A stretch of 64,000 nucleotides of DNA from contig CAYXYK010000002.1 of the NCBI GenBank assembly GCA_964469335.1, positions 125,549 to 189,548 of the forward strand. Direction: 5' to 3'. Source of the stretch: an uncultured Candidatus Saccharibacteria bacterium. GTDB lineage: Bacteria > Patescibacteriota > Minisyncoccia > Phycocordibacterales > UBA6899. This document shows positions 9,289-12,206 of this stretch, in pieces (position 1 is the stretch's first letter; every line of letters begins with the position of its first letter). The translations under genes were made by a program, and so were the position numbers. The notes under the pieces are model-generated. The model did no database searches. It was not told the DNA's origin and worked only from the letters and a program-made list of their open reading frames with translations.

Positions 9289-12206
9289 AAGACGATGCTG
9301 ATTATCTTTCCTTGCACATAGATGACTTTCTTTGGGGTCTTCCCTTCGAGCCATCTTGCGATATTCGGGCGTTCGACAGCGGTCTTCTTGATCTCATCTT
9401 CCCCAATGCTTCGATCGACCTCGATTGTGTCACGAAGTTTTCCGTTTATCTGTATCGCAACGGTCATTTTATCCGAAACAGTTTTCCCTTCGTCGTATTT
9501 CGGCCACGGTTCATTGTAGAGCTCGGTTGCATTCCCTATCATGGTCCATAGCTCTTGAGTGACATGTGGCGCAAAGGGAGCAAGTAATTTCAGGAGTGTC
9601 TCATAAGTGACCTTCGGCAGTTTCGGAAGTTTTTCGATATGGTTGAGTAGAATCATCATTTGCGCAATCGCTGTATTGAATGCGAATGATTCAATGTCTT
9701 CACCAACTTTCTTGATACTTTGATGGACTAGTACTTCTGTTTCTGTGATATGAGTACTTGCGTCGACAACGTTCCGTGACAGTCTCCAAAGTCGCTCAAT
9801 CATTCTACGGGCACCCATCATGTTGTCAGTTGACCACGCAATCGACTGATCGAACGGTCCCATGAACATCTCATAAACACGCAGAGAATCAGCGCCGAAT
9901 GTCGCAACAATGTCATCAGGATTGATGACATTACCATAGCGTTTACTCATCTTCCTTCCGTCTGATGCCTGAATGAGTCCGACATTCTGAAGTCGCATGA
10001 ATGGCTCATCATAATTGACCACTCCGATGTCGTATAAGAATTTGTGCCAGAATCTCGCATAGATCAAATGCCGTGTCGCATGCTCAGCTCCTCCGACATA
10101 GAAGTCAACTGGTGACCACTCAGCCTCTTTTTCTTTGTCTACCAACTTTAGATTGTTGTTCGGGTCGATGTAGCGAAGGTAGTACCACGAGGATCCTGCC
10201 CATTGCGGCATGGTGTTTGTCTCTCGTCTGTATCTTTTCGCGCGCACGTCTGCCTGCGGCAATGTCTCGAATTCATTCTCAGCGTTAATGTAGCCATAGA
10301 CATTGACCCATTCCGTTATACCAGCGAGCGGGCTTTCTCCCGTGCCGGTTGGTTCATAAGCATCAACTTCTGGGAGCATCACTGGTAGCTCGCTATCTGC
10401 GACTGCGTAGGGTTTGTGTGACTCGTCAAACACGATCGGGAATGGCTCACCCCAATAGCGTTGTCGGGCAAAGACCCAATCTTTCAGTTTGTATGTTGAT
10501 GTCAATTTCCCCCCGACTTTCTCAGTGATCGCTTTTTTTGCTCCGTTACTTACAAATCCGTTGAATGTTCCGGAGTTAATCAATATTCCATCGCCAGTAT
10601 ATTGCTTACCGTCTACTAGCAAGTCAAAGCAAAGTTTGTGCAGTTGATCAGTAATCTTGCGTGCGACTTCTTCTCTGGTGAGCCACTCGACAGTGAACTT
10701 ACCTTTTTCGTTATCTTCAAGCTTCGGTTCCGATACCACATCTGATTCCAAGATAAAGTAGAGACCCTTGGCTTTAATTTCTCTGTTAATGCCCTTTGAG
10801 TGGGCAATATAATGGTGATATACCGACTGGGTCACCGCTTCATATCTGACATGAGTGTAGCCCGTCTCTTCGACTATCTCTCGCGTTGCGCAAGCAACAT
10901 CATCCTCCCCATTCTCTTTGCCTCCACCAATAAAAAGACTTCCTCCTGCAGACTCGCCCCAGTTGAGCGAAAGGAATCTGTCGTTCTTTTTGTCGTGTAC
11001 TATCGCAACAATACTTTCACGTTTCTCCTCATTCTCGTGCGGTGTGCCGGTAACAGGCTCAATGACCTCTATAACGGGTAGCGCGTACTTTCTTGCGAAA
11101 TCACCGTCTCGTTCATCATGTGCGGGAACGGCCATAATCGCACCTGTGCCGTAACTTGAGAGGACGTAGTTTGCTATCCAGACAGGGATCTTCGTGTTGT
11201 TTGCAGGGTTCTCAGCAAAAATGCCAGTAGAGATTCCTTTCTTTTCTGCTACATCTCTGTAGTCCGCAGCACGTGTTTTTTCCTCGTCCAAGGTTTCCGT
11301 GATGAATGCACGAACTTCCGATGAGGGTTCCCATCCCAAGGTAATCCATGTTGCCGCCAGCTCAGCTGAGATTGCGATGAAGGTCGCACCGAAGAGTGTA
11401 TCGGGACGGGTCGTGAACACTTTGACCTTGTGTTTACCGTCTTCTTGTCCAGCAATGCCGAAGAGAGGAAATTCGATCTCAGCTCCGTCACTCTTTCCGA
11501 TCCAGTTGCGCTGGCTTTCCTTGATGCTTTCGGGCCAGTTGAGTTTGTCGAGGTCGACCAGCATGCGATCGGCATATTTAGTGATCTCGAGCACCCACTG
11601 TCGGAGTGGTTTCTTCTCGACTTTCGTGCCGCATCGTTCACATACGTCACCGTCGAGGTCCTCATTCGAAAGACCGGTCTTACATGATGGACACCAATTG
11701 ATTGGTTCATGGCTTTCGTATGCGAGACCCGCCTTGAAGATCTGCTTGAATATCCACTGTGTCCATTTATAGAATTTCGGGTCCGTAGTATTCACTTCGC
11801 GCGACCAATCATAGTTGAAACCAATCTTCGCGAGTTGCTCTTTAAATCGCTCGGTATTCTTTGCGACGGCATCACGTGGGTGAACCTTGTTCTTCAGCGC
11901 ATATTGTTCTGCTGGCAATCCGAACGCGTCCCAGCCCATCGGATGAAGGACATTGTGTCCAGTCATGTGCTTGTAACGTGAATAGATATCAGTGGCTATA
12001 TAGCCCTTTGGGTGTCCGACATGAAGCCCTTCACCTGAGGGGTACGGGAACATATCGAGCACGTAACTTTTCGGTTTTCCAGGAGTTTCCTCGGTCTTGA
12101 AGAGTCCGGATTCTCGCCAGTGTTTTTGCCATTTCCCTTCTATTTCGTTGTGGTCGTACTCCTTCATTCCTTCATAATACGGCCTAACAAGGCTTTCGCG
12201 CAACAC
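9285..12206 (-). CDS. leuS: leucyl-tRNA synthetase with a Nudix hydrolase domain inserted in the CP1 editing domain
   Basis: Class I HVGH motif, CPSC...CERCG zinc motif, CP1 [12 protein letters not shown] and KMSKR. Its 973 aa exceed the typical length because a roughly 150-aa insert carries a canonical Nudix box, [24 protein letters not shown]. Confidence 0.9.
   Translation of the reverse strand: [973 protein letters not shown]

Follow-up and report, generated by a model that had tools for sequence, protein, structure and literature searches.

A Nudix hydrolase domain inserted into the CP1 editing domain of a leucyl-tRNA synthetase from a Saccharibacteria bacterium

The DNA analyzed here, called the window, is a stretch of 64,000 nucleotides (nt) from contig CAYXYK010000002.1 (positions 125,549 to 189,548 of the forward strand) of an uncultured Candidatus Saccharibacteria bacterium (GenBank assembly GCA_964469335.1). 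On its minus strand it carries a leuS gene for leucyl-tRNA synthetase (LeuRS), and the CP1 editing domain of the encoded protein is interrupted by a Nudix domain. The features of gene and protein, in window coordinates and in amino acids (aa) of the protein, are the following.

9285..12206, minus strand: leuS open reading frame (ORF), bacterial-type LeuRS, 973 aa from a GTG at 12206, stop codon at 9285-9287
12012..12023, minus strand: HIGH signature of the synthetic site, here HVGH, aa 62-65, from motif alignment
11055..11510, minus strand: N-terminal part of the CP1 editing domain, aa 233-384, from PF13603 and the editing motifs
11397-11414, minus strand: threonine-rich CP1 motif TTRPDT, aa 265-270
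11106-11150, minus strand: CP1 motif GTGAxMxVPAHDxRD, ending in AHDERD (aa 362-367)
10602..11054, minus strand: inserted Nudix domain, aa 385-535, 151 aa, from alignment, Pfam and fold search
10857..10925, minus strand: Nudix box G-x5-E-x7-REIxEETGY, aa 428-450, catalytic/metal-binding motif
10782..10811, minus strand: X-loop region Y466-R475, likely specificity determinant, clade consensus Y-F-A-x-S-K-x-x-N-R
10683..10709, minus strand: stretch E500-W508, with acidic and aromatic residues that are conserved although not part of the box
10497..10601, minus strand: C-terminal part of CP1, aa 536-570, where the editing domain resumes past the insert
9939..9953, minus strand: KMSKS signature, here KMSKR, aa 752-756, invariant in the motif alignment
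9405..9728, minus strand: anticodon-binding domain, aa 827-934, PF08264, 68 bits

Judged from its sequence, the gene encodes a complete bacterial-type LeuRS with synthetic and editing active sites predicted to be intact. The product matched the equivalog model for bacterial leucine--tRNA ligase (TIGR00396), scoring 933.8 bits (cutoff 548.4) over two parts separated by the insert, and in a Pfam scan the LeuRS editing domain PF13603 was also found in two stretches (185 bits), together with the class I catalytic domain. Structural comparison with LeuRS from E. coli (4aq7) gave a template modeling (TM) score of 0.84, normalized to the target. The whole synthetase body is like that of the bacterial enzymes from E. 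coli, T. thermophilus and N. gonorrhoeae (PDB 4AQ7, 2BTE, 7NU8), with which it shares the HIGH and KMSKS signatures, TTRxDT and the conserved Asp of a CP1 editing domain, an anticodon-binding domain and a C-terminal domain; however, none of the solved LeuRS among the matches listed, all of at most 876 aa, has a catalytic insertion in CP1, whereas the window's CP1 is interrupted by the 151 aa of the Nudix domain. An initial annotation of this DNA had quoted LeuRS and CP1 motifs, which were found in the protein, and had given a protein length of 973 aa. An ORF of that length is present, but translation probably starts at the ATG at 12167 (Met14) to give a product of 960 aa, because the ortholog introduced below, the JGI gene calls and the family consensus begin there and residues 1-13 are modeled with a predicted local distance difference test (pLDDT) value below 50. 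The 13 residues that the GTG start would add (window 12168-12206) are missing from orthologs.

The insert was recognized as Nudix both by profile searches and by its predicted fold. PF00293 (NUDIX) matched the whole protein at aa 398-517 with 37.0 bits (gathering score 21.1; E 3.9e-9) and the insert alone with 41.9 bits (E 1.2e-10; profile positions 5-121 of 134). The Nudix box is a perfect G-x5-E-x7-REUxEExGU, and across the six-frame ORFs of the window the pattern G-x5-E-x7-RE-x2-EE-x-G has a single match, in the leuS insert. The insert was modeled with a pLDDT of 95.6, its fold being continuous with CP1 at high confidence, and shows the alpha/beta/alpha sandwich of the Nudix fold, which explains the whole block of about 150 aa. 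A fold search with the insert returned 519 PDB chains at E<=0.001, and all top matches listed are Nudix proteins. From the model, the insert is predicted to be a complete, independently folding Nudix domain placed in a surface loop of CP1 between the AHDxRD helix/strand and the G.L.NSG motif. Within it, the residues from E500 to W508 provide a candidate extra metal ligand or base and a candidate base-stacking residue. The initial annotation had proposed a Nudix domain in CP1 of LeuRS, and this is borne out by a PF00293 match above the curated cutoff, which the Pfam search suggested there has supplied, by the intact box and by the fold. Its block at 10602-11057 was nearly exact (10602-11054 in our analysis), but the box lies at 10857-10925 and not at 10860-10928. 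An ordinary lineage-specific CP1 loop, the contrary outcome that it had envisaged, does not apply, since the block is predicted to fold independently as Nudix.

The window protein was aligned with 119 close LeuRS. A block of about 140-150 aa occupies this site in 94 of the 120 sequences, and in the other 26 the flanks are bridged by about 5-15 residues. One locus (L045) is syntenic with the window, with genes for YchF GTPase, LeuRS, a PHP-domain protein and a sigma70_r4/HARE-HTH protein kept in both, with or without the Nudix insert. The leuS gene of L045 is 82% identical to that of the window at the nucleotide level, and its protein (P0004) has 90% identity in the columns that align; precisely the stretch corresponding to window 10600-11055 is missing from this gene, where the junction reads TPTGGMITDSV. 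Since this syntenic ortholog manages without Nudix, the domain is an addition and not a replacement of editing. The recurrence of the same insert in related genomes, a point raised in the initial annotation, was seen in more than 90 related LeuRS clusters. Neither an intein nor a Hint or endonuclease family was found in the LeuRS protein (Pfam and NCBIfam, E<=1), and no meaningful direct or inverted repeats were found around the insert, which shows a slight dip in GC content and nothing more. The identical protein is present on independent NCBI, JGI and Logan contigs. Beside the indel, nucleotide identity to L045 falls from about 0.82 to 0.67-0.73 in 150-nt segments (about 10450-10600 and 11055-11150), a drop that could stem either from CP1 having co-adapted locally with the insert or from recombination in this tract.

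Among the 94 insert-bearing LeuRS, the catalytic glutamates E443, E446 and E447 are each conserved in all 94 sequences, and the other box positions are kept in 94 (G428), 89 (E434), 91 (R442) and 90 (G449) of them. Outside the box, R396 is found in 87, Y466 in 82, K471 in 92, R475 in 80 and W508 in 86 sequences, and in a set of 40 diverse modules E500 and W508 (E116 and W124 of the insert) are kept in at least 90%. The motif [RK]ExxEE is retained in 92% of 248 modules and in 96% of those at the insertion point of the window (site A below); most modules without it are the second copy in a tandem array. Compared with the window protein, mean identity is 41% for the insert, 71% for the catalytic core and 47% for the C-terminal domain, meaning that the insert evolves faster than the core and at about the rate of the C-terminal domain. 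Cluster members with 0-3 substitutions give no information on selection. On the host side, HIGH is present in 93 of the 94 LeuRS with insert, the other one having a gap, and in 26 of 26 without, and throughout the LeuRS alignment HIGH, KMSKS, TTRxDT and GTGAxMxVPAHDxRD are invariant irrespective of the Nudix insert. This pattern indicates strong purifying selection on the Nudix catalytic residues. From the near-invariant box together with the invariant host motifs, the Nudix domain is judged to be an added and selectively maintained domain, probably catalytic and no substitute for editing, within a fully functional LeuRS, and we have high confidence that a real, active Nudix domain is present in a functional synthetase.

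The distribution of the architecture is broad. PF00293 was found in most of the top 120 LeuRS relatives, whose names, where given, are Parcubacteria, Paceibacterota, Vogelbacteria or Patescibacteria. In species-representative genomes, the scan of which is a sample and not a census, 28 of the 43 loci among the matches listed have the Nudix domain embedded in LeuRS. They are labeled Paceibacteria, Saccharibacteria and Gracilibacteria, and some are gut or rumen metagenome-assembled genomes (MAGs) labeled Mycoplasmatota, Bacilli or Erysipelotrichaceae, in which the insert is 42-48% and the LeuRS body 42-51% identical to that of the window. An exhaustive HMMER search with the insert gave 249 representative clusters at E<=1e-3, and recognizable LeuRS flanks are present in 93 of the 148 clusters listed. 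LeuRS-Nudix is thus common in Patescibacteria, including Saccharibacteria and Gracilibacteria, and is also found in some reduced Bacilli-like MAGs. Three insertion sites in LeuRS were distinguished.

Site A: the CP1 insertion point of the window's Nudix domain
Site B: the junction of catalytic core and CP1, at about aa 225-250
Site C: after CP1, at about aa 595

Up to three Nudix copies occur in one LeuRS (P0125, P0128), and clusters of module sequence type are common to different sites. Parsimony on a neighbor-joining tree of the 120 LeuRS, built with the insert removed, requires at least 13 changes of presence or absence and at least 32 changes of module type, and in some pairs of LeuRS the cores are 75-79% identical and the inserts only about 25%.

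Several further observations concern individual LeuRS. Two or three modules are present in P0125, P0128, P0136, P0144, P0145 and L013 (4001-4957), arranged in tandem at site B, in tandem at site A, or with one at each, and in some second copies the arginine of the box is gone but its glutamates remain. The alpha/beta domain Ser_hydrolase (PF06821) lies at site C in P0008 (aa 590-753) and P0082 (aa 724-819) and at site B in P0166 (aa 245-360), and an ASCH domain (PF04266) lies at site C in P0030 (aa 635-732); Nudix is also present in every one of these four proteins. On an ENA contig (L001, 3689-6502) a LeuRS-Nudix gene is split into four gene calls with a frame change in the Nudix region, which points either to a pseudogene or to an error in long-read assembly. 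Bacterial-type LeuRS-Nudix was also found on contigs labeled Woesearchaeota archaeon (L030) and Gammaproteobacteria (L016, 2.6 kb), labels that could reflect mis-binning or real transfer between bacteria and archaea.

The same Nudix lineage was also found outside bacterial LeuRS, and the neighborhoods of eight free-standing relatives were examined. P0207, seen on 4 contigs, lies 34 nt downstream of a gene for an archaeal-type LeuRS (TIGR00395, 895 bits; NF008957, 1021 bits; L047, 1069-4492). P0127, which has its own start and stop codons and is 47% identical to the insert of the window, lies 4 nt upstream of valS (767 bits; L046, 711-3462), with tsaD upstream at this locus. P0217 is one gene away from a gene for a prolyl-tRNA synthetase (ProRS) that itself holds a module of the same lineage, and P0160, located on a very short contig, is an ambiguous case that adjoins a fragment of a class I synthetase. 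Three of the eight near a synthetase gene exceeds the number expected by chance (P about 0.02-0.07, assuming such proximity for 8-13% of genes), the sample being small. ProRS proteins with Nudix (L055, 2762-4693; P0277-P0281) have 641-674 aa, with the module placed between the anticodon-binding and C-terminal domains; in the protein near P0217, the module at aa 390-534 scored 177.5 bits against the module hidden Markov model, is 46% identical to a LeuRS module and has an intact box. Such proteins are rare (5 of the top 120 clusters), and their relatives are labeled Nanoarchaeota or Woesearchaeota, that is, DPANN archaea.

Another group consists of stand-alone proteins of about 275-285 aa (L025 3632-4492, P0180, P0185, P0256, P0245 and P0221; also P0176 and P0191), in which the Nudix domain occupies the site A position of a reduced CP1-like scaffold. 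The flanking CP1 motifs are kept and the editing threonines are lost, and the Nudix box is intact in all aligned members but one. The neighbors of the stand-alone gene on L025, a contig with a Clostridiales oral MAG label, encode a His-phosphatase, a GNAT protein and an APH-like kinase. In P0220 (1318 aa), an M17 (leucyl) aminopeptidase is split by inserted domains, two of them GNAT and two Nudix of the same lineage, so that a further housekeeping enzyme serves as host. No IleRS or ValRS host was found among the listed relatives of the insert, despite their similar permissive architecture. As far as the sequences indicate, the Nudix lineage resides mostly within LeuRS and is also found in ProRS, beside archaeal-type leuS or valS, and in CP1-like scaffolds. 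Its hosts are ultra-small symbiotic prokaryotes, namely Patescibacteria, some reduced Bacilli-like MAGs and DPANN archaea.

With respect to substrate, the X-loop is known as a specificity determinant of Nudix enzymes, and hydrolases of dinucleoside polyphosphates (ApnA) have a conserved Tyr about 17 residues past the box (Dunn et al. 1999, via PMC5389931). In the window protein Y466 lies 16 residues past the box and is Tyr in 82 of the 94 homologs, although its register relative to the characterized ApnA hydrolases is approximate. To the Nudix (di)nucleoside polyphosphate hydrolases, namely the Ap4A hydrolases of lupin (1F3Y/1JKN) and C. elegans (1KT9), Ndx1 of T. thermophilus and Rv2985 of M. 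tuberculosis, the likeness is that of the generic Nudix core. The closest structure, 2AZW, is a free-standing MutT/Nudix family protein from E. faecalis, whereas the domain of the window is embedded and has the clade-specific X-loop. The modules are acidic, with a mean net charge of -6 and an isoelectric point (pI) of about 5.6, and that of the window has a charge of -8 and a pI of 5.4. The insert of the window, taken as a single sequence, has no close PDB sequence, the best E being 0.023.

Assignment to three groups of known activity was not supported. For RppH and YtkD, the models NF001938 (13-17 bits, cutoff 116) and TIGR02705 (18-22 bits, cutoff 154) were far from their thresholds, and the module is acidic (pI 5.4). 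For a MutT-type 8-oxo-dGTP diphosphatase, TIGR00586 gave 14.7 bits against 97.9 and NF008044 gave 15.9 bits against 148. For ADP-ribose pyrophosphatase, the residue 16 positions past the box is Tyr and not Pro, and NudE (NF008736) gave 12.7 bits against 169.

The explanation that we consider best overall, and hold tentatively, is that an active Nudix domain in LeuRS clears adenine (di)nucleoside polyphosphates made by the synthetase. The domain would be a Mg2+-dependent pyrophosphohydrolase tethered in cis to LeuRS, removing an adenine nucleotide with a polyphosphate chain that synthetases make or bind. The likeliest substrates would be dinucleoside polyphosphates such as Ap4A or Ap3A, which would form when ATP or ADP attacks the aminoacyl-adenylate, and the domain would then act as a built-in clean-up module at the source, with no part in aminoacylation or hydrolytic tRNA editing. 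A functional linkage of the Nudix lineage to synthetases is rather probable; the specific assignment of an ApnA-type substrate is possible but doubtful. The coupling of hydrolysis to aminoacylation or editing that had been suggested at the outset is plausible, the more so because the lineage is fused to or adjacent to tRNA synthetase genes, but an obligatory coupling is disfavored because a close ortholog lacks the insert and the module has often been gained, lost and swapped.

A number of results weigh against this explanation. All NCBIfam Nudix equivalogs scored under their cutoffs (13-22 bits against 98-475), the closest structure (2azw) is only 18% identical and of uncharacterized function, and the Tyr position agrees only approximately with that of ApnA hydrolases. 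A literature search gave no evidence that LeuRS in particular is a strong producer of Ap4A. The module is dispensable and turns over fast, as the changes counted above for the 120 LeuRS indicate, Ser_hydrolase and ASCH domains use the same permissive LeuRS loops, the lineage also occurs within an M17 aminopeptidase, and four of the eight free-standing relatives have no synthetase neighbor. Dispensability, turnover and other hosts are equally compatible with a generic housecleaning enzyme riding on LeuRS.

That is the first alternative: an ordinary housecleaning Nudix enzyme, for example a sanitizer of oxidized or non-canonical (d)NTPs or an enzyme of nucleotide salvage, that is mechanistically unrelated to LeuRS and to which LeuRS simply lends surface loops of unusual permissiveness, along with assured expression where genomes are very small. 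Besides the syntenic ortholog without insert, the many gains, losses and swaps, the unrelated PF06821 and PF04266 domains in the same loops, the M17 host with its GNAT domains and the free-standing relatives without synthetase neighbor, this reading is favored by the finding that the Nudix-box scan of ORFs detected no other Nudix gene in the window. It is countered by the recurrent association with synthetases (three LeuRS sites, ProRS, adjacency to archaeal-type leuS and to valS), by the CP1-like scaffold that still surrounds Nudix in stand-alone proteins from which the synthetase body and the editing threonines have been lost, and by the exhaustive search, in which most relatives are LeuRS-embedded and those listed include no IleRS or ValRS host. 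We regard it as somewhat unlikely.

An enzyme acting on the ends of tRNA(Leu) or of other RNA held by CP1 is unlikely. Its action might be removal of a 5' pyrophosphate or of a non-canonical cap, or else the repair of chemical modification at the 3'-CCA end, such as pyrophosphorylation or ADP-ribosylation by toxins. The CP1 domain, in which the insert is located, binds the tRNA 3' end; structural neighbors include RppH, AvrM14 and Dcp2-type decapping enzymes; ASCH, regarded as an RNA-binding domain, is co-inserted in some relatives; and both the CP1-like scaffold kept around Nudix in stand-alone proteins and the high turnover, which is like that of conflict-related modules, would fit. However, the acidic modules are unlike basic RNA-binding Nudix enzymes, RppH having a basic pI, the RppH and YtkD models gave 13-22 bits against cutoffs of 116-154, and the ProRS site between the anticodon-binding and C-terminal domains is not obviously CCA-binding.

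Quite unlikely, in our estimate, is the wider claim that the insert is a copy of a horizontally spreading, synthetase-targeting Nudix cassette that neutralizes a nucleotide-based attack or signal against the machinery of tRNA charging (for example a modified 3' end of the tRNA, a toxic adenylate or an alarmone). This claim includes sharing between ultra-small bacteria (Patescibacteria, reduced Bacilli) and DPANN archaea, repeated colonization of permissive LeuRS loops and occasional colonization of ProRS, duplication between sites and budding with a piece of CP1. A counter-measure module in an arms race between episymbiont and host, which would destroy a nucleotide-type inhibitor or signal aimed at the synthetase (for example an antibiotic mimicking the aminoacyl-adenylate, or an ADP-ribose-derived or alarmone toxin product), appears improbable. 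Rapid gain, loss, swapping and multiplication to up to three modules per LeuRS, the presence of the module in Patescibacteria, Bacilli-like MAGs and DPANN archaea alike, and its co-occurrence with other hydrolase and GNAT domains would be in line with such a role, but no toxin, immunity or defense genes were seen next to the leuS gene of the window, and adenylate mimics do not have the pyrophosphate bond that is the usual Nudix target.

That the Nudix fold has no catalytic function and provides nothing but a structural spacer, a sensor of nucleotides or a surface for protein interaction is highly improbable: proteins with this fold that are not enzymes are known, NrtR and AraR among them, and were matched in the fold search, and some second copies in tandem arrays lack the arginine of the box, but at site A the three glutamates are kept in 94 of 94 and the box arginine in 91 of 94 sequences, and the box of the window is perfect. 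An intein, a mobile-element remnant or an assembly artefact, suggested by a discrete block of about 150 aa that is missing from a close ortholog, with intein and artefact named by the initial annotation as ways in which its claim might fail, is effectively refuted, as the insert is in frame, continuous with CP1 in the model and present in more than 90 related clusters, and the lack of repeats and of intein or endonuclease families, together with the same protein on several independent assemblies, therefore excludes artefact, intein and recent mobile-element insertion.

Among known systems, the nearest precedent is NadM-Nudix (2QJO, 2QJT), an NMN adenylyltransferase/ADP-ribose pyrophosphatase in which a nucleotidyltransferase of the HIGH superfamily is joined to a Nudix domain. 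It differs in being an end-to-end fusion with a Nudix domain of the ADP-ribose pyrophosphatase subfamily in the NAD pathway, whereas the domain described here is inserted into an editing domain. IleRS with a GNAT domain (NCBIfam NF040702) likewise combines a class Ia synthetase with an extra catalytic domain and is treated by curators as a type of its own, although domain and host differ. The CP1 domain tolerates idiosyncratic lineage-specific insertions; to our knowledge, those described are short structural elements and not whole enzymes. Free-standing trans-editing homologs also exist (AlaX, YbaK/ProX), and these separate editing-domain homologs are like the stand-alone CP1-like-Nudix proteins, except that the latter lack the editing threonines and almost always have an intact Nudix box. 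NCBIfam release 20 holds no model for LeuRS-Nudix, and full-text literature searches found no description of this architecture; the words tRNA and synthetase are absent from the 2017 survey of the Nudix clan (PMC5389931). The component families are well known and the proteins are already in public databases with Pfam tags, but the combined architecture is undescribed in the searchable literature. In databases the proteins are named leucyl-tRNA synthetase or, in several cases at NCBI, class I tRNA ligase family protein, a naming that domain-aware annotation would correct.

LeuRS is among the best-studied enzymes, and drugs are directed at it by way of the CP1 editing site. A large share of Patescibacteria LeuRS has a third, apparently catalytic domain grafted into CP1. 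If by-products of the Ap4A type are the substrate, nature would here have one synthetase both producing and degrading a signaling dinucleotide, in organisms whose nucleotide economy depends on hosts. If the domain acts instead on tRNA ends or inhibitors, it would provide a new quality-control or protection function, and a spreading synthetase-targeting cassette would represent a new kind of in-cis protection or repair activity within an aminoacyl-tRNA synthetase. An unusually rich set for comparison exists in nature, made up of matched orthologs that either have or lack the domain, copies that are free-standing, and the stand-alone proteins of the CP1-like-Nudix type.

In the rest of the window, a gene for a PHP-domain phosphoesterase (8386-9354, minus strand) comes directly after leuS, whose stop codon lies at 9285-9287. 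In L045, leuS and the PHP gene share 4 nt, and a comparable overlap would result in the window from an internal Met (…MTE…). Rfam matched only four tRNA genes in the window, which has neither tRNA-Leu nor rRNA. They are tRNA-Pro(CGG) at 36518-36589 and three tRNA-Ala genes (GGC, CGC and UGC) clustered within 2.2 kb at 50545-52704 on the minus strand.

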